Sequence record: PZ179880.1
DNA from: a phage
DNA: 64,000 nucleotides
Reading direction: 5' to 3' (one strand)
Below are positions 3,925-59,735 of this stretch, one piece after another. The first letter of the stretch is position 1; each line of letters starts with the position of its first letter. The notes below the pieces were generated by a model. That model had not been told where the DNA came from, searched no databases, and saw nothing but the letters and a program-made list of their open reading frames with translations. The position numbers and the translations under genes were made by a program.

Positions 3925-4161
3925 TTATTTACCTATCACAGTTTTAATATGAGTTGTTCCACGTTCTTTAAGAGTGGAAAGCAATTTTTGGCATTTTTCT
4001 AAATCAGATTTCCAACTATGCGGTCTATCAATACAAACCCAGTTTGACTTATAATACTGCCTCCATTTAGAGAAAAAATACTTCTTATACTCTACAACAA
4101 ATGAAATGTTCTCGTTGGAATAAGAACTAATTGCTGTAAGTTGTACCAAACGAAATTTCAT
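3925..4161 (-). CDS. hypothetical protein (31.2-like position)
   Basis: 78-aa ORF, abuts cd stop. Confidence 0.45.
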   Translation of the reverse strand: MKFRLVQLTAISSYSNENISFVVEYKKYFFSKWRQYYKSNWVCIDRPHSWKSDLEKCQKLLSTLKERGTTHIKTVIGK

Positions 4162-5855: not shown

Positions 5856-5894
5856 GGTAGAGCTATAATATCACAACTCTACCGTAAAGTAAAC
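5856..5894 (-). promoter_or_regulatory. early promoter
   Basis: GTTTAC, 18 bp, TATTAT. Confidence 0.45.
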
Positions 5895-9187: not shown

Positions 9188-9217
9188 ACTATAACACAAC
9201 ACGAGGGACTTGTAAAC
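9188..9217 (-). promoter_or_regulatory. early promoter upstream of alc
   Basis: GTTTAC, 18 bp, TATAGT. Confidence 0.45.
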
Positions 9218-10835: not shown

Positions 10836-12005
10836 TTAAAAATATTTTTTAAAACTCATCATAACTTTATCATCAACATCATTATCAATCTGTGCTACAA
10901 GGTAAGATGACAGTTCTACTTCTTGTGGTGCGGATTGAACATTATCAGAATTAAGGTATTCACGAATCCAAGGATATGGATGTTTAACCGGAGCATCGGT
11001 AATTGGGCATGGAAGACCACACTGTTTCATACGAGATACAGTTAAGTAATCAATAAAGCTCCACATGCTATTTGTATTTAATCCAGGAACATCACCATCT
11101 TTAAATAAATGAACCGCCCAGTCTTTTTCTTGGCGGTTAACTTCCATGAAAATATCAACTGCTTCTTGTTCACACTCTTGAGCAATTTTAACCCATTCAT
11201 CACCATCAGTGCCAAGTTGAAGTTGACGAATAATATATTGGGTGCCTTTAAGGTGAAGTTGCTCATCACGAGCAATGAACTTCATAATCTTGGCATTACC
11301 TTCCATGATTTCCATGTTCTTATGGAAGTTAAAGGTACATGCGAAAGATACATAAAAACGAATAGCTTCCAATGCGTTGATTACGTGCAGGCAGAGGTAA
11401 AGAGATTTCATTAGTGCTCGTTTAGTACATTCAACAACTTTGCCTAACTCTTCTTTACGAAATCCTTCTGATAAAATTCCTTCATAATCTTCAACCGCAT
11501 TCTGATATTCACGAGTCTTAACTAGAACGTCATCATAATAACGACCAATAGATTCAGCACGTTTCATGATAGCTTCATCTAGTACAATCTCATCAAATAC
11601 CTTCGATGGATCAGTATAAAGATTTCGCATGATATGGGTATATGAACGGCTATGAATAGTTTCACTAAAAGTCCATGTAGCAACCCATGTATCAAGACTT
11701 GGGTCTGAAATTAATGACATAAGTACTGCAGACGGTGCACGACCCTGAATGCTATCTAGAAGTGATTGATACTTCAGGTTGTTAGTAAAAATATCTTGCT
11801 GATACTGAGGAAGCTTGTTAAATTGTGCAGCATCCATCATTAAGTTTACTTCTTCAGGACGCCAGAAAAATGACAACTGCTTTTCGGTTAAATCTTCAAA
11901 AACTTTATGACGTTGAATATCATAACGCGCAATACCAAGACCTGAACCGAAGAACATAGGTTCTTTTAAAACATCAACTGGGTTTGTATTAAAAACTGTA
12001 GACAT
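10836..12005 (-). CDS. nrdB: ribonucleotide reductase small subunit
   Basis: 389 aa from MSTVFNTNP; di-iron/tyrosyl radical family; contiguous (no intron). Confidence 0.9.
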   Translation of the reverse strand: MSTVFNTNPVDVLKEPMFFGSGLGIARYDIQRHKVFEDLTEKQLSFFWRPEEVNLMMDAAQFNKLPQYQQDIFTNNLKYQSLLDSIQGRAPSAVLMSLISDPSLDTWVATWTFSETIHSRSYTHIMRNLYTDPSKVFDEIVLDEAIMKRAESIGRYYDDVLVKTREYQNAVEDYEGILSEGFRKEELGKVVECTKRALMKSLYLCLHVINALEAIRFYVSFACTFNFHKNMEIMEGNAKIMKFIARDEQLHLKGTQYIIRQLQLGTDGDEWVKIAQECEQEAVDIFMEVNRQEKDWAVHLFKDGDVPGLNTNSMWSFIDYLTVSRMKQCGLPCPITDAPVKHPYPWIREYLNSDNVQSAPQEVELSSYLVAQIDNDVDDKVMMSFKKYF

Positions 12006-15557: not shown

Positions 15558-16418
15558 TTACACCGCCATTTTTCCTTTAATAGGAGGGTGTGATTCGTAA
15601 CCTTTAAGAACGAAATCTTTAGGCCTGAGTTTAAGAACATATTCCAATTGTTCTTTAGTAGAAAGATAGCGGAATTTATAAGGCAATCCGCCTATTACCA
15701 GTTCACAAAGCTCTTTAGGTTCACGACGCAAAATTTCTTTACATTGTTCTACGTGATTCATATAGATATGAGTATTACCGCCAGAAAATATCAAATCTCC
15801 TGGAATAAGATTACACATCTTAGCTACAATATGAACTAATGCAGCATATGATGCAATATTAAATGGAAGACCGAGGAAAACATCTACCGAACGTTGATAC
15901 CACTGCAAATCCAAATAGCCATTACGCACATTAAACTGATAGAACATATGACAAGGCGGTAATGCCATATATTTAAGTTCAGCTGGATTCCACGCCGACA
16001 CAATTTGTCGCCTATCATTTGGTAGTTTTTTAATACGATCAATAACTTCTACAATTTGGTCTACACCGCCAAAATCACGCCATTGTTTTCCGTAAATTGG
16101 ACCAAGTTCACCACTATGATATCCTAAATCTTTTGCTTGGTTTTCGTAATTTTCATCCCAGACTGTTTTGCCTTGAATTAATGAATCGTGTTGAATTAAT
16201 CGTAAATCATTGACATTTGTGCTTCCTGATAAAAACCAAAGTAGCTCAGCAATGCAAGCTTTCCAGGCGAGCTTCTTAGTTGTTACTGCAGGAAAACCTT
16301 TACTTAAATCCCAGCGCAATTTAGTACCGAACAAAGCAATTGTTCCTGTGCCTGTTCGGTCATCAGTTTCATAGCCATTTTCCAGGATATCTTTAATTAA
16401 AAATTGGTATTGTTTCAT
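15558..16418 (-). CDS. td: thymidylate synthase
   Basis: 286 aa, contiguous (no intron); ThyA active-site region ALPPCH. Confidence 0.95.
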   Translation of the reverse strand: MKQYQFLIKDILENGYETDDRTGTGTIALFGTKLRWDLSKGFPAVTTKKLAWKACIAELLWFLSGSTNVNDLRLIQHDSLIQGKTVWDENYENQAKDLGYHSGELGPIYGKQWRDFGGVDQIVEVIDRIKKLPNDRRQIVSAWNPAELKYMALPPCHMFYQFNVRNGYLDLQWYQRSVDVFLGLPFNIASYAALVHIVAKMCNLIPGDLIFSGGNTHIYMNHVEQCKEILRREPKELCELVIGGLPYKFRYLSTKEQLEYVLKLRPKDFVLKGYESHPPIKGKMAV

Positions 16419-17801: not shown

Positions 17802-18101
17802 TCAGACGGACTTTTTCACAATTTTCCAATCGGCTTTAAACTGTTCAACGTCAGAATGGTAAATCCAGAATCCTGCGCTTTCTCCATCCTCATAAAGAGG
17901 GCATCCATCACATTCATCTTCCCACCCCATGTCACGTAAAAGATGTTCAGCTTTTTCAACAAGTTCAGAATCTTTACCGATGATATTAAAATACCATTTA
18001 CCTTTAACTTCTGAATCTTTGATGCTCTGACGTTGTAATCTCATTTTATTCTCCTTAGTTGATAAGGCTATAGTATCACTACCATAGCCCGTTGTAAACA
18101 A
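17802..18101 (-). CDS. hypothetical protein (frd.3-like)
   Basis: 99-aa ORF downstream of early promoter ~18070-18099. Confidence 0.45.
   Translation of the reverse strand: MFTTGYGSDTIALSTKENKMRLQRQSIKDSEVKGKWYFNIIGKDSELVEKAEHLLRDMGWEDECDGCPLYEDGESAGFWIYHSDVEQFKADWKIVKKSV
18070..18099 (-). promoter_or_regulatory. early promoter with stem-loop
   Basis: GTTTAC, 18 bp, TACTAT; imperfect inverted repeat across the -10. Confidence 0.45.
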
Positions 18102-18795: not shown

Positions 18796-19023
18796 TTATT
18801 GTTCAATCAGTCCCATATAAAATTCTGCGTCTTCAGAATCCATGCCATCACAGTATTCATTAGCCATAAAGCGGGTGAGGTCTTCAAGAGGACCTTCAAT
18901 AACGATTTGAATACTCCAAAACTTAGAATCTTGCACATTTGTGATTCTAAGTTCAGGATAACGATTACGAATAATTTCTTCAATATATTCAAAATCAACG
19001 ATGTCAATATCAACTTTAGCCAT
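18796..19023 (-). CDS. hypothetical protein (75 aa from MAKVDID)
   Basis: AGAGGAAA SD precedes ATG at 19021-19023. Confidence 0.4.
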
Positions 19024-19057
19024 GTTATTTTCCTCTTTAATCATCAGCAGTATTGCC

Positions 19058-19096
19058 GATAGTTGTATAGTACCATAGAAGAGCAAGGATGTAAAC
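19058..19096 (-). promoter_or_regulatory. early promoter cassette (PeSL-type), copy A
   Basis: GTTTAC -35, TGGTACTAT -10, conserved leader CAACTATC; ~80 bp near-identical to 35380-35448. Confidence 0.55.
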
Positions 19097-19120
19097 CATT
19101 TTGTGAAAAAATTTTGAAAT

Positions 19121-19149
19121 AAAAAAAAAGGGGGACCTCTAGGGTCCCC
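19121..19149 (-). terminator. intrinsic terminator downstream of gene 32
   Basis: GGGGACC/GGUCCCC stem followed by U9. Confidence 0.7.
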
Positions 19150-19171: not shown

Positions 19172-20080
19172 TTAAAGGTCATTCAAAAGGTCATCCAGGT
19201 CCGTGTCATCAGCACTAGATGAACTGTCAGAGCTTGAGCTCATAAAATCATCTTCAGTTTTTGTTTTGAAGTCATCAACATTGAATGCATCCAAATCATC
19301 AGCAACTTTATCAGCTTTCTTAGCGGCAGTTGCTGCGGCACCACCCATAGCAGCAGTTCCCATAACTTGACTGAACTTAGTGCTCAGTTCTTCAAACGAT
19401 TTGAATTTATCTTTAGAAGTCATTTCAGAAAGGTCAACCATTTGTTCGAACAGTTCTTTCTGGAAAGATTCATCATCAATGTTTGGAATCGCAGATTGAT
19501 TCAGGAATTTAGATTCGTCGTAGTTACTAAAACCAGAAACTTGTTTAACTTTCAGTACAAAGTTAGCACCTTCCCACGGACAAGTTACATCAACCGGAGT
19601 TTCACCCATTTCAACATCAACTGCAATCATTGCATTGATTTTATCCCAAATTTTCTTACCGAAACGGTATTTAAATACTTTACCTTCATTTTCTGGAGCA
19701 GCTGGGTCTTTTACTACAAGAATGTTAGCCCAGTAAGAAGTTTTACGTTTAACAAGACCATACTCTTTATTGTCAGTGTTGTACAAATCATTTTTACTGA
19801 TGTACTGACATACTGGACAAGAATCGTAATCACCGTGGGTAGATGAACAGTTTTCAATATACCATTTACCATTTTTCTTGAAACCGTGATTTACAAGAAT
19901 TGCGAATGGTGCTTGTTCATCATTTTTAGACGGAAGAAAACGAATTACTGCTTGACCGTTACCCGCATTATCGAGTTTCAGTTTCCACTCGCCTTTATCT
20001 TCAGAAGAAAAACCACCTTTATTTCCAGCCAGTTTAGCCATTTGTGCAGCGAGTTCAGCAGTAGATTTACGTTTAAACAT
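19172..20080 (-). CDS. 32: single-stranded DNA-binding protein gp32
   Basis: 302 aa; acidic C-terminal tail ending LDDLLNDL; UUAAA-repeat operator in leader; strong terminator downstream. Confidence 0.95.
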
Positions 20081-20112: not shown

Positions 20113-20154
20113 GTGCTATGACGATGTATGACCTCATAGCTGGTCAGTGAGATA

Positions 20155-20181
20155 ATTATAATCTATTTATAATAAGCAATT
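20155..20181 (-). promoter_or_regulatory. MotA-dependent middle promoter for gene 32
   Basis: Minus-strand AATTGCTTAT (MotA box), 12-bp spacer, TATAAT. Confidence 0.55.
20164..20171 (-). promoter_or_regulatory. late promoter-like TATAAATA upstream of gene 32
   Basis: Exact TATAAATA on minus strand inside the gene 32 middle-promoter spacer. Confidence 0.45.
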
Positions 20182-34711: not shown

Positions 34712-35347
34712 TCATAGTTCAGATGCTACGGTGATTACAGCTTCAATGTTTTCTGCTGAGCGTTTAATGTCAAGATACACATTACCGTTTTTAGCGATTT
34801 TACATGACATTCCGATATCAATAAATTTCTGAATATGATGTTCCATCATTTTGTATCCAAAAATTCGCATATTTCCATTGTTGTTAATTTCAAAATTACG
34901 AATTCCGTGAGTGCGTTTTTCTAAAATAGCGAGATAGTTACTACGATAAGTTTCAACCTTTTTAAGAACAAATCCATTTTCATCTAAAAGTTTTAACATA
35001 AAGTCTTTATCTTCTTCCATATCAGAAGTAATCTCGCGAGCTTTACGAGTTGCTCGTTTTTTCAGCAGTTCAGGAGCGTTTTCCTGTGCGTATAAAGTTG
35101 CTGCATTTGAAATAATATCCTGAGCTTCACCAGTAATGATTAATCCATCACCAGATTTCTCTACTAGGCCTTTTTTAATCAATACCCCAATATTACTATT
35201 AACTACTGCATTACCTAAATCTGGATGCACCTCACGAACTTCTGCAGCTGCAATGAAATCTTTCTTAGCAATGGTAATTAAAATCGCAGCAGTTTTTTCA
35301 TTCAGAACATCGTTAGAAGCTTTGATGATGTAAGTTACTTTAGACAT
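34712..35347 (-). CDS. motA: middle-transcription activator MotA
   Basis: 211 aa; sequence matches remembered T4 MotA N-terminus; early promoter and terminator upstream. Confidence 0.9.
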   Translation of the reverse strand: MSKVTYIIKASNDVLNEKTAAILITIAKKDFIAAAEVREVHPDLGNAVVNSNIGVLIKKGLVEKSGDGLIITGEAQDIISNAATLYAQENAPELLKKRATRKAREITSDMEEDKDFMLKLLDENGFVLKKVETYRSNYLAILEKRTHGIRNFEINNNGNMRIFGYKMMEHHIQKFIDIGMSCKIAKNGNVYLDIKRSAENIEAVITVASEL

Positions 35348-35379
35348 TTTCTAATCTCCGTAATTCTGTATCAGTAGTT

Positions 35380-35418
35380 GATAGTTGTATAGTACCACAG
35401 TATGCTTTGGTTGTAAAC
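35380..35418 (-). promoter_or_regulatory. early promoter cassette (PeSL-type), copy B, for motA
   Basis: GTTTAC -35, TGGTACTAT -10, conserved leader; A/T-rich UP region and terminator immediately upstream. Confidence 0.55.
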
Positions 35419-35442
35419 CGTTTTGTGAAAAAAATTTTGAAA

Positions 35443-35469
35443 TAAAAAAGGGAGAGCCGAGGCTCTCCC
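35443..35469 (-). terminator. intrinsic terminator downstream of gene 52 / small membrane ORF
   Basis: 9-bp stem GGGAGAGCC/GGCUCUCCC followed by UUUUUUAUUU. Confidence 0.7.
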
Positions 35470-35477
35470 TAAAATTA

Positions 35478-38398: not shown

Positions 38399-38498
38399 AG
38401 TAAGCGTTTAATACATCAATCATTAAAACAATTGGGAATATACTCAAAACTACTAGTATTATAACTACATTCCATATAGCTTTAACAATCTTTTTCAT
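38385..38498 (-). CDS. small hydrophobic peptide (37 aa)
   Basis: GGAGGAA SD before ATG at 38496-38498; MKKIVKAIWNVVIILVVLSIF... Confidence 0.35.
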   Translation of the reverse strand: MKKIVKAIWNVVIILVVLSIFPIVLMIDVLNAYFGFM

Positions 38499-38524
38499 TT
38501 TCTGTTCCTCCGTAGTTGATAGGG

Positions 38525-38556
38525 TAATAATACCACAGAGGAACAGTCTTGTAAAC
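38525..38556 (-). promoter_or_regulatory. early promoter
   Basis: GTTTAC, 18 bp, TATTAT preceded by TGG. Confidence 0.45.
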
Positions 38557-38563
38557 AACTTTT

Positions 38564-38662
38564 TTAAAAATATTCGTAATAAATGTGAATGCCAATCACT
38601 ACTGCCGAAACTTGCGCAACCCACCATGCACAAGCAATAAGTACAGAATTCAAAATTTTCAT
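38564..38662 (-). CDS. small hydrophobic peptide (32 aa)
   Basis: Hand-translated MKILNSVLIACAWWVAQVSAVVIGIHIYYEYF. Confidence 0.35.
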   Translation of the reverse strand: MKILNSVLIACAWWVAQVSAVVIGIHIYYEYF

Positions 38663-38741: not shown

Positions 38742-39014
38742 TCATAGTTCAATCTCAGCGATTTTCATTTCATTACTATTAATAGCCGCTTTAAGACTAT
38801 CTGAAAGAATTACATTCCAGTGGTCATTCATATGACCATTAACCAAGCGTGTAATTTCTTCGGGAGTTGAAAAATAAGGCGTATCAGACTCCCAATGCGA
38901 TAGTCCCAAGCGAGTATAAATCATACCTTCATCATCGCTAGAATATTCAACTGACACAAACTCATCAGTTATTTTATGTTTAGCGTAATAAAATTTAAAT
39001 TTCATTTTACTCAA
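38742..39014 (-). CDS. hypothetical protein (90 aa)
   Basis: ORF. Confidence 0.45.
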   Translation of the reverse strand: MSKMKFKFYYAKHKITDEFVSVEYSSDDEGMIYTRLGLSHWESDTPYFSTPEEITRLVNGHMNDHWNVILSDSLKAAINSNEMKIAEIEL

Positions 39015-39217
39015 TAATCCGCTAAAAGATCGACGATTGCATCACGAAGACACTTATTCGCAATACGCTTAAGAGCAATTTCAGTTTCTGGAGCATTTTG
39101 AATAATCATTGAATTCAATTCAGCCTCAGCAAACTGAAGTTCTTTAACTAATTCAGCTTTATATTTTCCTTGCCCTTTCTTAGCTTTTGCTCGTTTTAAT
39201 TCAGCTGTAGTAAACAT
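39011..39217 (-). CDS. hypothetical basic protein (68 aa from MFTTAELKRAK)
   Basis: Early promoter at 39252-39291 lies inside the longer ORF-track version, so the internal start is preferred. Confidence 0.4.
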   Translation of the reverse strand: MFTTAELKRAKAKKGQGKYKAELVKELQFAEAELNSMIIQNAPETEIALKRIANKCLRDAIVDLLADY

Positions 39218-39242
39218 TTTATTCTCCAAATCCGTATCAGTT

Positions 39243-39291
39243 GATAGTTGTATAGTACCACAGTCCTTGTGGTATGTAAACTGTTTTGTGA
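39243..39291 (-). promoter_or_regulatory. early promoter cassette (PeSL-type), copy C
   Basis: GTTTAC, TGGTACTAT, conserved leader CAACTATCAACTGATAC; 7-bp hairpin TACCACA/TGTGGTA. Confidence 0.5.
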
Positions 39292-39297
39292 AAATTT

Positions 39298-39855
39298 TTA
39301 AATGGAAAGATACCATCCGTTGTAGTTGCTTTTTCTTACAACCTTACGAAGGTCTTCTCTATCACCGATGAACTTCGGAGTGTACTGGATGACACCTGGA
39401 TGAATTTCTTTAGTGTTGAATATAATTATACAGTCAGCGACTTGATGATTTAGAATGGGCCCTAGATTTATTCCAGAACCGTATGGATACTCTCCGCTGC
39501 ATCCGGTTGTTACCGAAATCCAACGTGAGTCAGTTTGATGTGTTTTGACTTCTACACGAAGCCCGCAGTATTTTGGATGCGCCAGTACATCCCACGCATA
39601 TGTATACGGGTCATTAACATCCTCTTGGCCTTTGTTAACGTACCCGCTTAGCCAATCTGCTACAAAAAATTCTGCGTACACAGCGATACGACATCTTTCA
39701 ATAACTTCTGCTTTATCCTGATTAGGATTTTGTTTTAAAGAGTATCTTGCTGTATCAGCAATTTTGACCTTCATTTCACTAGTCAAATCATTGTTCGATA
39801 GGGTAAATGTCGGAATCTGAAATAGTCTCTGTAAACCCGGATTCGTTTTCTGCAT
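39298..39855 (-). CDS. denB: endonuclease IV (cytosine-DNA specific)
   Basis: 185 aa; synteny rIIB-denB-ndd. Confidence 0.75.
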   Translation of the reverse strand: MQKTNPGLQRLFQIPTFTLSNNDLTSEMKVKIADTARYSLKQNPNQDKAEVIERCRIAVYAEFFVADWLSGYVNKGQEDVNDPYTYAWDVLAHPKYCGLRVEVKTHQTDSRWISVTTGCSGEYPYGSGINLGPILNHQVADCIIIFNTKEIHPGVIQYTPKFIGDREDLRKVVRKSNYNGWYLSI

Positions 39856-43773: not shown

Positions 43774-45593
43774 TATTGGCTCATCCATTCTTTACGAAGG
43801 TCAGCGTTATCTCCCATGAGCATTTCAAAAAGCTCTTTCCAGTTCTCAGGAAGTTTAACAACATCATATACTGGGTTTTGAATCATCTCACGATATTCAG
43901 ATTTTTCCAAAGAGCCAAGTCCCTTAATATAACGGATGCTATGTTTAGGTAGAGCATCTTTGGCACTCTCATATTCAGCGACTGTATAAAACCATTCTTG
44001 TTTTTTACCGACCTGAGCGATGATTACAGGAGTTTTGACGAAGCGAATTCTTCCTTGTTCAAACAGTTCTGGCCAATTACTAAAAAATCCGAGCAGAGAA
44101 GGATAAATGCTTCCTAGACCATCATGGTCAGCATCGGTCATAATAGCAATATTATGATAATTCAAGTTTTCGGCTTTTTCACCAAGAACTAATCCAGTGA
44201 TTGCGCAAATATCAAACAGTTCTTTGTTTTTAAGCATATCAGCATATGACATACCCCAACTGTTGAGAACTTTACCACGTAATGGATAACCACCATGAAG
44301 TTCTTTATCACGAACATCAATAAGATATCCGATAGCAGAATCGCCCTCAGTCAAGAAAAGAGTAGTATCAGCATCTTTACCACAAAGATTCGCTTTAATA
44401 TGTTTATGAACCTTAGCTTTAGAAGCCTTTTTAGCTGCTTTAGTTTCTGCTGCTTTTTCTGCCGCCAATTTACGAGCCAAAGCAGCTTCAATAATTGGCA
44501 TTAAAATTGCTTCATTATTTAAAATAGCGCGTGAAATCTTTTTAGCATCAAGCTGAATATGACTACGAATTTCACCAAATGGAGAAGTCAAACGCTCTTT
44601 AGTTTGAGAATCAAATCGCATGTTTTTCATATCACGAACAAACATGACGATAGTCAAACATTCTTTAACACGTGCTTTAGTTACATCAATTTTGAACTTA
44701 CGTTTGATTTGTGGAATAAGGTCTTCACAAATATCATCCATAACACAGTCAATATGATGGCCACCATTCTTAGTATGAATGTTATTGACGTATGTTAATT
44801 GACGAAAACCATCCGGTGAACGACCAACCGCAATAGAACAATTTTCTTGTTCTTGAACGATAGCATGCTCATCATATTGGCGTGCATATTTCTTAAAATT
44901 ACCCTGAACCTTTTTACCATTAAAGGTAAATTGAATATCAGGATAAACTACTGCAAGTGTCTGGAGACGATCCAGTGTAATGTCAAGATAAACCTGAGAC
45001 AGCTCATTAGTTTCAAATGACATAAAATCAGGAATGAAAGTAACACGAGTTCCTTTCCATTTTCCAGGAATATCTTCCCATGATTTATTTTCCATGCCAT
45101 TTGAACAACGAACTACAATATTATTTTGACCGTCGCCAGTTTCACCGACAAACATCACAGAAAAAATGTTAGTTAAACTAGAACCAACACCGTTCATACC
45201 ACCAGTGACGCGTTCTTTGTCATCACCAAAGTTACCACCTGCTTTTGGAATAGTCCAGGCAGCAACAGGACCAGGAATTTCTTCACCAGTAGGTGTTTTA
45301 ACCATTGCCTGTGGAATACCACGACCGTTATCTTCAACTGTTACTTGGTTGTTTTTGATAGTAACATTAATTTTATTTGCGAATTTAAACTTAGTACGAA
45401 TACCTTCATCTACTGAGTTATCGATAATTTCATCAATAAGCTTAACAAGACCAGGTACATACTGAACACTTTCCCATTTACCAAACAGAAAGCGCTCATG
45501 CATTTCATTAGCAGAAGAGCCAATATACATGCCGCTACGCTTTTTGATATGTTCAATATCGCTCAGAATTTTAATTTCATTCTTAATCATCAC
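43773..45593 (-). CDS. 39: DNA topoisomerase II large subunit (fused gp39+gp60 equivalents)
   Basis: 606 aa; GHKL ATPase N-terminus and Toprim (EGDSA, DADHDG) in one continuous frame. Confidence 0.9.
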   Translation of the reverse strand: MMIKNEIKILSDIEHIKKRSGMYIGSSANEMHERFLFGKWESVQYVPGLVKLIDEIIDNSVDEGIRTKFKFANKINVTIKNNQVTVEDNGRGIPQAMVKTPTGEEIPGPVAAWTIPKAGGNFGDDKERVTGGMNGVGSSLTNIFSVMFVGETGDGQNNIVVRCSNGMENKSWEDIPGKWKGTRVTFIPDFMSFETNELSQVYLDITLDRLQTLAVVYPDIQFTFNGKKVQGNFKKYARQYDEHAIVQEQENCSIAVGRSPDGFRQLTYVNNIHTKNGGHHIDCVMDDICEDLIPQIKRKFKIDVTKARVKECLTIVMFVRDMKNMRFDSQTKERLTSPFGEIRSHIQLDAKKISRAILNNEAILMPIIEAALARKLAAEKAAETKAAKKASKAKVHKHIKANLCGKDADTTLFLTEGDSAIGYLIDVRDKELHGGYPLRGKVLNSWGMSYADMLKNKELFDICAITGLVLGEKAENLNYHNIAIMTDADHDGLGSIYPSLLGFFSNWPELFEQGRIRFVKTPVIIAQVGKKQEWFYTVAEYESAKDALPKHSIRYIKGLGSLEKSEYREMIQNPVYDVVKLPENWKELFEMLMGDNADLRKEWMSQ

Positions 45594-46891: not shown

Positions 46892-46976
46892 TACAATTTC
46901 CTCATTAATTGAACATTGGAGTGATGCGTTTCAGAAGAGTAGTAGCACCTTTGGCAAATTTTCCATTTTATTCTCC

Positions 46977-47063
46977 AAGTTGTTTTCTGTATCAGTAGTT
47001 GATATTGATATAGTACCATAATCAACTACTGATGTATATAGTTTTATGAAAAAATTTTAAACT
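46977..47063 (-). promoter_or_regulatory. promoter-like element with perfect 13-bp inverted repeat flanking the -10
   Basis: ATCAGTAGTTGAT (46981-46993) and ATCAACTACTGAT (47011-47023) flank TGGTACTAT; A/T-rich UP region upstream. Confidence 0.4.
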
Positions 47064-48709: not shown

Positions 48710-48727
48710 CTAACCGAGGAAGTAAAC
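48695..48727 (-). promoter_or_regulatory. early promoter upstream of motB.2-like ORF
   Basis: GTTTAC and TATTATAAC on minus strand. Confidence 0.4.
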
Positions 48728-56085: not shown

Positions 56086-56295
56086 TTAAATTACATGACT
56101 ATTTATAATAAATTCTTGTGGAACGTTAAAATACCCAATTTTAGTTAATATAACAACATCACCGTTAATAATTACCGGAGAATAATCGGCTGGAGCATTA
56201 AACTTCCAATGAGCTCTAATATTATATCCATCAGAACCAAATGCTCAACTAGCCGGTCTCCCGGCTTTTTGCCATGCATAAAAATCAAATTTCAT
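56086..56295 (-). pseudogene. 70-codon frame interrupted by in-frame TGA (codon 17)
   Basis: ATG at 56293-56295 overlaps upstream stop (ATGA); TGA at 56245-56247; frame continues 52 codons to TAA at 56086-56088. Confidence 0.4.
56100..56107 (-). promoter_or_regulatory. late promoter TATAAATA for soc
   Basis: Reverse complement is TATAAATA, 30 nt upstream of soc ATG. Confidence 0.65.
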
Positions 56296-56492
56296 TTTGA
56301 ATGCTCTATAATTAATTTTAAGGCTTCTTCATGCACCTTACCTAATTGTATATGTCCAGTTTTAATTGTGTAAGCTTTGTGGAGCTGATTAGATAGGAGC
56401 TCGTATGTGAGCTCCTTGTCATAATTTTTAAATAGCTGGTCAATACGTTTCTTGTGGGCTTTCTTAAGTTGACGTTTATTTAAACGAGCCAT
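56292..56492 (-). CDS. hypothetical basic protein (66 aa)
   Basis: ORF abutting gene 56 stop. Confidence 0.45.
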   Translation of the reverse strand: MARLNKRQLKKAHKKRIDQLFKNYDKELTYELLSNQLHKAYTIKTGHIQLGKVHEEALKLIIEHSK

Positions 56493-57010
56493 TAATAACC
56501 TCGGTCTTGACGAGCGAAGTTTTCAGCATTTTTCAGATAATAAAGTTTAAAGATTTCTTCAGCCGTAAGACCGAGACCTTGGAACATGTTCAGAACGAAA
56601 TGAAGAATATCAATCATTTCGAATTTAATTTCCAACTGGTCTTGTGGAGACAAATCAGTAATCAGAGTTTCACGTCGTTCACCATGTTGAGCTTTCCAAG
56701 GCTTCCATACAGCAGATGCATCTTTTTCACCATTGCTCATACCACCAAGAGAAGTCAATAGTTCGCGGAATTCATCATCAATATAATCTTTCTGATTACG
56801 CAGCCAATCAACAACTTCACCCGCAGTAGCCAAATCATCAGGATGACGGTTATATTCAGGTTTATCTTTAGCTAAACGAACCTGTAGAGATTTCTGCATA
56901 TCAAGCATAACCTGCAGCGGGTCTTTTTCATCACCGAGAATATCCCAGTATTCATTTTGAGCTTTATCAGCGCCTTCGATCAGTTGACTACATTCGTTAA
57001 AGTAAGCCAT
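56492..57010 (-). CDS. 56: dCTP pyrophosphatase gp56 (MazG-like)
   Basis: 171 aa from MAYFNECSQ; middle promoter upstream. Confidence 0.85.
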   Translation of the reverse strand: MAYFNECSQLIEGADKAQNEYWDILGDEKDPLQVMLDMQKSLQVRLAKDKPEYNRHPDDLATAGEVVDWLRNQKDYIDDEFRELLTSLGGMSNGEKDASAVWKPWKAQHGERRETLITDLSPQDQLEIKFEMIDILHFVLNMFQGLGLTAEEIFKLYYLKNAENFARQDRGY

Positions 57011-57071: not shown

Positions 57072-58410
<1,339 letters not shown>

Positions 58411-58435
58411 TATATCATCCTCAGCAATTTATTTT

Positions 58436-58465
58436 ATAATACCATAACAAGCTGAGAAAGTAAAC
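58436..58465 (-). promoter_or_regulatory. early promoter for nuclease-like ORF and dam
   Basis: GTTTAC, 18 bp, TATTATAAAA. Confidence 0.45.
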
Positions 58466-58509
58466 AAATTTATGAAATTTGTGATAAATATTAATTTAAA
58501 GGAGGACAT

Positions 58510-58710: not shown

Positions 58711-59735
58711 ATCTTGGCATATTTAGATAACCGCATTTTAGCCATTAACCCCTGGGCAATATTATTTTTCATATATTCCATAATTTGTTCAGGGGTTGCA
58801 CCTTCCTTTCTAATCATATCATTAACATCTTTTGATTTCCAGGGAGATTTATCCCAAAACATAACCCTTTCTCCTGCATCAACTAATTTAGTCATTCGCT
58901 TGATAGTGTCAGGGTGACGAGGTTCATTATCTAAAACCCACACTCGTCTATCTTTAAATGGAACAACTTCTAGGTCTAATTGACCACCCGTAATAGCTAT
59001 ACCATTTTCAATAAAAAGCGAATCTATAGGTCCTTCTAGAACATATACATCACCATCTTTGACTCGTTCGACTCCATAGATTTTTGTTGCCTCAGGATAA
59101 GCTTTGATGGTGATATATTTTTGAGGAGCATCTTTCTTTAATGCACGTCCTTGAAAAGACTCAGCTTTTCCGTTAGCATTATAAATTGGAATAACAAGAC
59201 GAGGCTCAGGTGTTTCCTTTTTATATGTTCCTGGAGCTATACTATTAACTAATTTAGGCCATTCAGTTGTAAACCAAAGATATTTCCATTTATCCTTTGG
59301 AATACAACGAGCTTTTACATATTTTATAATTGGATGGTCTTCCGCCAATTTATCTAATCTGATGCATGACGGAAGAGATTTAATTATTTTCTTCTCAGGT
59401 TGTTTAGGAAGTTCTTTAGGTTTTTCTACTGGACGACTTTTACCTTTTTCTTTTCTTATTTCAAAGATATACTCACGATATAAATCAGGTTCAAACTCCT
59501 TTAAATATATTCCGATTGGTGCATGATAGTTACAGTTATAACAATGAATATTTCCTTCATTATTATCACCGTAATACCATCCACGGGCTTTATTTTGGTC
59601 GGTTTTTGAATCTCCACAAACAGGGCATCTAAACCTTAATTTAAAAGTTGAACTATTATTTACTTGTGTGAATTTAGGTAAATGAGCTAATGCACGATAT
59701 GCAAACTCATTATCAATCCAAGGTATTGATGACAT
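58707..59735 (-). CDS. 61: DNA primase gp61
   Basis: 342 aa; N-terminal zinc ribbon (CPVCGDS ... CYNCNYH), Toprim-like core. Confidence 0.9.
   Translation of the reverse strand: MSSIPWIDNEFAYRALAHLPKFTQVNNSSTFKLRFRCPVCGDSKTDQNKARGWYYGDNNEGNIHCYNCNYHAPIGIYLKEFEPDLYREYIFEIRKEKGKSRPVEKPKELPKQPEKKIIKSLPSCIRLDKLAEDHPIIKYVKARCIPKDKWKYLWFTTEWPKLVNSIAPGTYKKETPEPRLVIPIYNANGKAESFQGRALKKDAPQKYITIKAYPEATKIYGVERVKDGDVYVLEGPIDSLFIENGIAITGGQLDLEVVPFKDRRVWVLDNEPRHPDTIKRMTKLVDAGERVMFWDKSPWKSKDVNDMIRKEGATPEQIMEYMKNNIAQGLMAKMRLSKYAKI

Follow-up and report, generated by a model that had tools for sequence, protein, structure and literature searches.

The described system closest to the repeats considered here is the PeSL (promoter-early stem-loop) cassette of T4-type phages, first defined in RB49 and phi1. 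In a PeSL, a sigma-70-like early promoter is combined with an AT-rich region, with a stem-loop whose position varies, and with an SD and ATG; promoter activity, terminator activity and the formation of mini-circles between adjacent PeSLs have experimental support (Arbiol et al. 2010, PMC2839356). The definition has been extended to T4 and PST as TTTACW-N17-TAYWAT with a stem-loop just upstream, the ndd region being one of the examples (Comeau et al. 2014, PMC4122927). T4 early promoters consist of UP, −35, TGn and −10 elements together with 'additional regions of consensus' (Hinton 2010, PMC2988021). Early transcripts can carry the RegB/S1 target GGAGRAYARAA, of which the T4 optimum GGAGAAUAAAA is needed for efficient cleavage; the motA RNA site GGAGAUUAGAA is a tested good substrate, GGAA sites are reported to be poorly cut, and no required information was found 5′ of GGAG (Durand et al. 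2006, PMC1702504). The novel ORFs of T4-like phages do not differ in GC content from the remainder of the genome and give no appearance of having been acquired recently from the host (Nolan et al. 2006, PMC1524935).

The stretch of phage DNA analysed here (sequence record PZ179880.1; 64,000 nucleotides, termed the window) shares long stretches of 95–97% identity with many Tequatrovirus (T4-like) genomes and is collinear with T4 127952–168903 followed by T4 1–23485. The minus strand carries the early genes of the window, so the block under study is to be read as its reverse complement; all copies of the cassette read 5′–3′ on this strand. The repeats are very probably T4-type early (Pe) promoter cassettes of a Tequatrovirus, of the type published as PeSLs. 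Since they fit a published element type in the same genus, the kind of element is already known: what was noticed is a second encounter with the early promoters of T4 and with PeSLs, and it adds no new biology. An Rfam search of the whole window returned zero matches.

Repeat grouping of the window gives five copies. Three had been listed in a preliminary description of this DNA and are confirmed where it placed them (copies 1, 2 and 3, at 19058, 35380 and 39243); two had not been listed, at 46985–47058 (copy 4) and, more weakly, at 38502–38575 (copy 5). On the minus strand the elements follow one another in the order terminator (copies 1 and 2 only), ATTTCAAAATTTTTTCACAAAAyG, GTTTAC(A), a variable spacer of 17 nt, TGG-TACTAT, ACAACT and ATC..., after which a leader of 28–37 nt runs to the SD and the ATG. 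Spacing predicts that transcription starts at the A of ATCAA, which lies 7 nt downstream of the −10. The individual features are as follows.

19131..19149, minus strand: copy 1, predicted intrinsic terminator hairpin of gene 32, GGGGACC-CTAGA-GGTCCCC, −13.9 kcal/mol, with a T-run at 19121–19130.
19097..19120, minus strand: copy 1, A/T-rich UP block ATTTCAAAATTTTTTCACAAAATG, including a 21-nt run identical with copy 2.
19067..19096, minus strand: copy 1, core promoter, with GTTTAC at 19096–19091 (TTTACA at 19095–19090), a 17-nt spacer, TGG at 19075–19073 and TACTAT at 19072–19067.
19021..19066, minus strand: copy 1, discriminator to ATG, with ACAACT at 19066–19061, predicted start A at 19060, leader ATCGGCAATACTGCTGATG..., SD AGAGGAA and ATG at 19023–19021.
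35449..35470, minus strand: copy 2, predicted intrinsic terminator after motA.1/gene 52, AGGGAGAGCC-TCGG-CTCTCCCT, −18.6 kcal/mol (z −4.5), with a T-run at 35443–35448.
35389..35442, minus strand: copy 2, UP block and promoter, with GTTTAC at 35418–35413, a 17-nt spacer, TGG and TACTAT at 35394–35389.
35345..35388, minus strand: copy 2, ACAACT to ATG, with predicted start A at 35382, leader ATCAACTACTGATACAGAATTAC, GGAGATTAGAA (GGAG at 35359–35356) and the motA ATG at 35347–35345.
39215..39303, minus strand: copy 3, after denB and without a terminator, with GTTTAC at 39281–39276, TACTAT at 39257–39252, predicted start A at 39245 and leader ATCAACTGATACGGATTT.
46964..47058, minus strand: copy 4, between motB and cef, with −35 TATACA at 47038–47033, TACTAT at 47015–47010, leader ATCAACTACTGATACAGAA and GGAGAATAAAATG at 46976–46964.
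38496..38575, minus strand: copy 5, a partial family member driving ndd.4, with GTTTAC at 38556–38551, TATTAT at 38532–38527, TACCCT and leader ATCAACTACGGAGGAACAGAAA.

The ORF of gene 32 (19172..20080) ends just upstream of the copy 1 hairpin, and the gene downstream is a homologue of frd.3 (ORF 18796..19023; Pfam Phage_FRD3, E 6e-40). The UP block of copy 3 overlaps the denB stop codon (39300–39298), and the ORF downstream of this copy encodes 68 aa (39011..39217, phrog_4535); copy 4 is followed by an 11-codon ORF ahead of cef. An A/T-rich region lies directly upstream of the −35 in all five copies, and copies 1 and 2 have a 21-nt A/T block in common that is identical. The core promoter is TTTACA-17-TACTAT with TG in copies 1–3 and TTTACA-17-TATTAT in copy 5, while copy 4 has the degenerate −35 TATACA.

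The 17-mer GGTACTATACAACTATC is exact at 19058–19074, 35380–35396 and 39243–39259 and occurs with 3 mismatches at 47001–47017, whereas shuffled sequence contains 0.09 matches on average and reached four matches in 0 of 100 shuffles; TTCACAAAANNGTTTAC is likewise exact in copies 1, 2 and 3. The copies had been called near-identical, which is an overstatement of a genuine repeat: gapped alignment of copies 1 and 2 gives 80% identity in 94 columns, the two longest stretches without a difference measure 21 and 18 nt, and the terminator stems are not alike. Gapped alignments replaced ungapped identity matrices of the promoters, which had under-estimated the similarity of the family because of indels of 1–3 nt. 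The likeness is nevertheless not confined to promoter hexamers, the observation that was to have counted against a cassette family; it clearly goes past the −35 and −10, taking in the start site and discriminator on one side, the UP block on the other, and the extended −10.

The same family is found in T4, where the 17-mer is exact at 167064, 163651, 146853, 70674, 55362, 53921 and 27058 and occurs as variants at 58758, 65392 and 6608. Copies in the window are orthologous to those at T4 146853, 163651, 167064 and 6608. Beyond T4, a 91-nt query taken from copy 2 has matches at 3984 places in 569 phage records, typically about eight per genome, and almost all of these are T4-like phages of Escherichia, Shigella and Yersinia. 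Anatomy, copy number and T4 orthology are matters of direct observation. Orthology and the UP/−35/TGn/−10 architecture together point to T4 early (Pe) promoters: the UP element, GTTTAC, TGn and −10 are those of the T4 Pe promoters (PMC2988021; PMC1524935), with orthologues at about 146.9, 163.7, 167.1 and 6.6 kb. Compared with T4 Pe promoters at large, the GGTACTATACAACTATC sub-family comprises only about 8–10 of about 40 and shares sequence well past the general consensus. The window itself contains about 20 other promoters of the form GTTTAC-N18-TAnnnT. In one public record (NC_055724) the orthologous motA cassette is annotated as a 'terminator' and a 'predicted early promoter'.

Comparison with PeSLs reveals no essential difference. 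The cassettes of the window have the AT-rich region, the early promoter, in most copies a stem-loop within or beside the promoter, and the SD and start codon of the downstream gene at their 3′ end; they are repeated in accessory-gene regions, some of them at places where ORF content changes between close relatives, and the ndd region, one of the published T4/PST examples, holds copies 3 and 5. The earlier reading of the repeats as PeSL-type early-promoter cassettes is supported by this published definition and by the comparative exchange data given below. It had also held that every copy includes an intrinsic terminator, which is true of copies 1 and 2, where a GC hairpin and T-run (both predicted terminators) lie directly upstream. 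Copies 3 and 4 differ from the PeSL in having no upstream terminator hairpin, and copy 3, having no hairpin, is best regarded as a 'half' cassette made up of the promoter only. The stem-loop of copies 4 and 5 lies on both sides of the −10, which is the layout described as the commonest in RB49/phi1. The 13-bp inverted repeat of copy 4 (47034–47021 with 47003–46990) gives a read-through RNA hairpin that folds at −20.2 kcal/mol (z −5.6), a feature shared by T4 at about 6608. In copy 5 part of the spacer (38546–38535) is complementary to the leader and SD (38513–38502), with a duplex of −26 kcal/mol (z −6.6). Seven variants of this ndd.4-type hairpin preserve the pairing in 97% of cells; four changes are one-sided (G-U), zero are two-sided, and shuffles score equally high. 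Complementary use of the upstream terminator and the promoter-embedded hairpin was considered and rejected: the two never co-occur in 50 promoters, but this is not significant (Fisher p 0.55 and 1.0).

Copy 5 and several other early promoters resemble the hairpins that sequester the ribosome-binding sites of T4 e, soc, 49 and I-TevI (PMC3014915), in that the SD pairs with sequence preceding the start; an SD left free would then be expected only on RNA begun at the proximal promoter. The described cases involve late or middle promoters, and in the three copies reported at the outset this pairing is absent (z about 0 to 1). As a general trait of those three copies, pairing between the spacer and the leader or SD was considered and rejected (duplex z 0.18, 0.42 and 0.99), and it is strong only in other cassettes. 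A search of the literature on transcription-start mapping in T4 and on RBS hairpins at early promoters found nothing specific.

The leader requires separate treatment. It had been reported that each copy combines a UP block, a GTTTAC −35, a −10 and a conserved leader, and the first three of these are present in every listed copy. The leader 20-mer CAACTATCAACTACTGATAC is not shared by all: within the window copy 2 alone has it exactly, the cef copy (copy 4) differs from it at 3 positions, copy 3 has a 3-nt deletion relative to it (ATCAACTGATAC), and copy 1 departs directly after ATC. The first five bases of the 20-mer, CAACT, are the end of the discriminator and lie upstream of the predicted start; given that start, this part of the 'leader' is untranscribed. 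The ATCAA that follows is a start-site box. Among 29 promoters outside the family, picked solely by their UP/−35 sequence in viral contigs, 22 have ATC(A/G) at a distance of exactly 6 nt from the −10, on its downstream side (in shuffles, 1.0 on average and at most 5), and the phages concerned include Serratia PS2, Aeromonas 44RR2.8t and Acinetobacter Acj61. The box is conserved across T4-like genera, and its presence in non-family promoters makes it promoter-intrinsic and far older than the cassette family. What is specific to the family within the 20-mer is the stretch CTACTGATAC, which at single loci varies to ACTACTGATAC, to ACTGATAC (one ACT of the tandem pair is lost) and to ACTAATAC.

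If the transcribed 5′ leader (AUCAACUACUGAUAC...) were an RNA element in its own right, for example an mRNA-stabilizing 5′ hairpin (AUCA/UGAU) or a site to which a regulatory RNA or protein binds, that function, and not promoter function or common descent, would keep it conserved. An identical run of 30–43 nt does cover the leader in several T4 paralogues with unrelated spacers, and minimum-energy folds show a 5′ hairpin of 4 bp in copies 2 and 4 and of 7 bp in copy 1. However, single-sequence folds of the leaders are no better than those of shuffles (z −0.39, −0.27 and +0.51; −1.45 in copy 1), RNAalifold finds 0 pairs over 14 leader variants, and ACTACTGATAC, ACTGATAC and ACTAATAC, all variants at the same locus, destroy the AUCA/UGAU hairpin with no compensating change. 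With zero Rfam matches over the whole window as well, the 5′ leader as a structured RNA is rejected; the RegB work, moreover, found no needed information 5′ of GGAG. An RNA element of this kind is very unlikely, and the additional RNA-level or protein-binding role that had been suggested for the 5′ leader finds no support, owing to its beginning upstream of the predicted start, the start-site box that other T4-like genera also have, its indel and point variants and its want of a consensus structure.

The sole documented RNA or protein role in these leaders is at their 3′ end, in the RegB/S1 site, about which the preliminary description was silent. In copies 3 and 4, and in the cassettes at 2358 and 18099, the SD is formed by the exact 11-mer GGAGAATAAAA; in copy 3 it stands as GGAGAATAAAA(TG) at 39227–39215. 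The motA site of copy 2 (GGAGATTAGAA) has one mismatch to the 11-mer. Copy 1 is without the RegB consensus (GAGGAAAATAA) and carries GAGGAAAAUAA, which is of the GGAA type. The match to the RegB/S1 target is limited to the 3′ end of the leaders. A RegB target is a single-stranded 11-mer in an early intergenic region, and leaders that are predicted to be unstructured, with exact sites in copies 3 and 4, are consistent with this.

A further reading, very unlikely in our estimation, treats the block from the discriminator to about +15 as a cis-acting control site, either a shut-off operator or, in a milder form, YATC(A/G)A as a distinct promoter or 5′-end element. T4 early promoters are shut off abruptly 2–3 min after infection by a mechanism that, according to reviews, is not understood. 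A block next to the start site that is absent from most early promoters and tolerant of indels argues against a control function. More specifically, the imperfect palindrome TATCA-N5-TGATA across the start site might be an operator for a DNA-binding protein, a candidate early shut-off factor of T4. Two reviews attribute the shut-off to neither AsiA nor ModA, and the palindrome is found in five T4 cassettes as well as in copies 2 and 4; yet only about 8–10 of about 40 T4 early promoters carry it, copy 1 wholly lacks the second half-site, and at orthologous loci in viable phages the half-site spacing falls from 5 to 2 nt and TGATA changes to TAATA, which makes such an operator highly improbable. 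Likenesses to IHF, DnaA-box, boxA and sigma-dependent pause motifs appear weak.

Sequence comparison points indirectly to exchange between cassettes. The T4 frd.3 and nrdC.10 cassettes agree without a difference over 58 nt, the whole spacer included, and other T4 pairs have identical runs of 30–43 nt spanning the −10 and leader. At the frd.3 locus the T4 spacer is AAGCATAAAGCTTTATGG, while in the window and in three IMG/VR contigs it is of the ATCCTTG(C/T)(T/C)CTTC type, as in the e.8 and imm.1 cassettes; on either side of the spacer, the gene 32 terminator and the frd.3 leader remain the same. Each of the two spacer alleles at frd.3, that of T4 and that of the window, matches a different paralogous cassette, and a short internal patch at this locus appears to have been replaced between paralogues. 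At the ndd.4 and denB loci, compared in T4, T2, SHFML-26, KFS-EC3, G3F8, S2_01 and the window, the discriminators TACCCT, ACAACT and TACTCT and the −10s TACTAT, TATTAT and TAATAT are exchanged among relatives, as are the leader types. These spacer and leader allele swaps are direct observations, and at two IMG/VR loci (L079 and L082) half cassettes occur in which the terminator is fused straight to the −10 region. The copies thus probably exchange short patches by homologous recombination, a form of concerted evolution, although selection and gene conversion are not cleanly separable as causes of the identical −16..+15 block. That the similarity is a generic early-promoter consensus, reached by independent convergence in copies that are neither related nor recombining, is extremely improbable: about 20 other promoters of the window do share the hexamers and an A/T-rich upstream region, but non-orthologous cassettes share positions with no known contact requirement (the 58-nt run of T4 frd.3 and nrdC.10, spacer included), spacer alleles are swapped between phages at one locus, and the 17-mer is exact three times against 0.09 expected.

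Whole ORFs are also gained, lost and replaced at the cassettes, with junctions observed inside them. At copy 3 the window has 441 bases more than T4, between 38774 and 39215, with a pair of small ORFs; the extra DNA is joined at each end within the SD/ATG segment (GGAGAATAAAATG / GAGTAAAATG / AATGAAATG), and the locus exists in at least three states among relatives. At the copy 2 locus of G3F8, a 75-aa ORF separates the cassette from motA and has a promoter cassette on either side, the two having the leader ATCAAATAAATGAACTGAAAC in common; in S2_01 an equally long ORF is annotated in front of motA. At the cassette at 5894 an ORF is inserted between the SD and the ATG of cd.2, and at the cassette at 18099 a module replacement ends at AAGGAGAATAAAATG. 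A block of promoter plus ORF at 57937–58478 (cassette 58465) is absent from T4 and is bounded by the repeat ATCACAAA. The 'morons' of lambdoid phages are likewise small accessory ORFs that stand at gene boundaries with a promoter and a terminator of their own; unlike in morons, the flanking signals here are a repeated, recombining family. In a rough count that set aside two introns and tail-fibre divergence, a cassette is involved in only four of about 17 indel or replacement loci between the window and T4, and cassettes occur at about 21 of about 110 gene boundaries (about 19%), so there is no demonstrable enrichment. In this the window departs from the PeSL description, its indels relative to T4 not being enriched at cassette-bearing boundaries. 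The cassettes serve as exchange points, but are not shown to be drivers of plasticity.

A mechanism can be proposed in which the promoter, terminator and RegB activities, as well as the mini-circles of RB49, are taken from the literature. Host sigma-70 RNA polymerase would bind the block, which corresponds approximately to its whole footprint: the UP element (AAAATTTTTTCACAAAAC), the −35 (G)TTTACA, the 17-nt spacer, TGG-TACTAT, ACAACT and the ATCAA box. The open complex of RNA polymerase protects a stretch that takes in the whole conserved block, from about −58 to +15. Transcription would probably start at the A of ATCAA, and the start site and initial transcribed region are probably tuned for start selection and promoter escape. 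The short and presumably unstructured leader would end in an SD that in several copies is the optimal RegB/S1 site GGAGAATAAAA, and is thus potentially a strong ribosome-binding site and a RegB target at once; a very strong immediate-early promoter combined with a RegB site in the SD would lead to early mRNA that is strongly made and then quickly inactivated. The intrinsic terminator of the preceding gene (gene 32, motA.1/52), directly before the UP element where there is one, would insulate the two units, shielding the cassette from transcription that arrives from upstream. The likeness of the copies would result from selection on contacts with polymerase and RegB together with short-patch recombination among the approximately eight copies per genome, and the same homology may allow ORF modules to be gained, lost and swapped at cassette boundaries.

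The cassette marks immediate-early transcription units, RegB-controlled genes and module boundaries, and is therefore useful for annotation; most of the 569 records that carry it leave it unannotated. The lack of any obvious enrichment of indels at cassette boundaries tempers the idea that PeSLs drive plasticity, and the start-site box, which extends from Tequatrovirus to the T4-like phages of Aeromonas, Acinetobacter and Serratia, may deserve a specialist look.

A subset of the early promoters has a spacer between the -35 and -10 elements that is complementary to the leader, including its Shine-Dalgarno sequence (SD). The spacer-leader duplexes have energies of -17 to -26 kcal/mol, with z-scores of -3.5 to -6.6 relative to shuffled sequences, and the complementarity is found at the following sites:

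window 38502-38546, in the partial cassette driving ndd.4
window, -35 at 9217, a further cassette
window, -35 at 48727, a further cassette
T4 early (Pe) promoters at 166807, 136336, 123093, 65413, 62797, 53943 and 8218

None of the early promoters with spacer-leader pairing has an upstream terminator, and in seven ndd.4/nrdC.8 variants the pairing is maintained via G-U changes only, a pattern that is not decisive. In the model proposed here, pairing with the spacer would hide the SD in read-through transcripts; in those that start at the proximal promoter, the SD would stay exposed. The spacer-leader hairpins resemble those in the late promoters of e, soc, 49 and I-TevI, as well as the PeSL stem-loops of RB49 that overlap the -10 element.

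The cassette between motB and cef contains a perfect 13-bp inverted repeat at window 46990-47034, with arms CATCAGTAGTTGAT and ATCAACTACTGAT. Through this repeat, the promoter spacer carries the conserved leader in reverse-complement form, and the two arms bracket the -10 element. The read-through RNA is predicted to fold into a hairpin of -20.2 kcal/mol (z -5.6), and the inverted repeat is also kept in T4, at approximately 6608.

In other T4-like phages, represented by Serratia PS2, Aeromonas 44RR2.8t, Acinetobacter Acj61 and metagenomic contigs, an ATC(A/G)A start-site box lies exactly 6 nt past the -10 element in 22 of 29 early-type promoters, where about one would be expected by chance. 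Loci with the box include L009, L014, L024, L027, L031, L044, L048, L053, L055, L064, L070 and L075. Two loci of IMG/VR contig 2974787500_000001 (L079 and L082) are 'half' cassettes, which have lost the UP element and -35 by deletion and in which the upstream terminator hairpin is joined directly to the extended -10/TACTAT.

In Escherichia phage G3F8 (L086 15160-15660), a 75-aa ORF (beginning MKFKIENEIV) separates the motA-type cassette from motA; on either side of this ORF lies a different promoter cassette, the two having the leader ATCAAATAAATGAACTGAAAC in common. An annotated ORF of equal size occupies the corresponding position before motA in phage S2_01 (L087), and in IMG/VR locus L042 the same cassette and leader as in G3F8 drive the G3F8 ORF.

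A 186-aa ORF of unknown function (phrog_8706; window 57850-58410, minus strand) lies between gene 61 and dam, the adjoining Dam GATC methylase gene, and has an early promoter of its own. Its Pfam matches are sub-threshold: one, with the DpnII (GATC) restriction endonuclease, scores 16.8 bits where the cut-off is 23 (E 0.0045), and another is with RE_BanI. Only about the last 25 codons are left in T4, where the deletion is bounded by a ATCACAAA repeat.

Alignment to annotated T4 shows that the window is without the following T4 features, the differences falling at about 11338-11341, 15869-15870, 20143-20179, 44108-44173 and 56107-56529:

the nrdB and td group I introns
segG
the mobA/gene 60 split of topoisomerase gene 39
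segF, in whose place stand approximately 420 bp

In both the window and T4, tiny ORFs are found directly 3′ of the conserved leader, SD and ATG:

window 46931-46966, minus strand, MENLPKVLLLF followed by a stop, before cef
T4 ~167017-166991, MKIAEIEL followed by a stop, before ndd.6

In the window, an 87-aa ORF (38742..39005) carries MKIAEIEL as an in-frame fusion at its C-terminus. These leader-proximal ORFs look like scars of module exchange.
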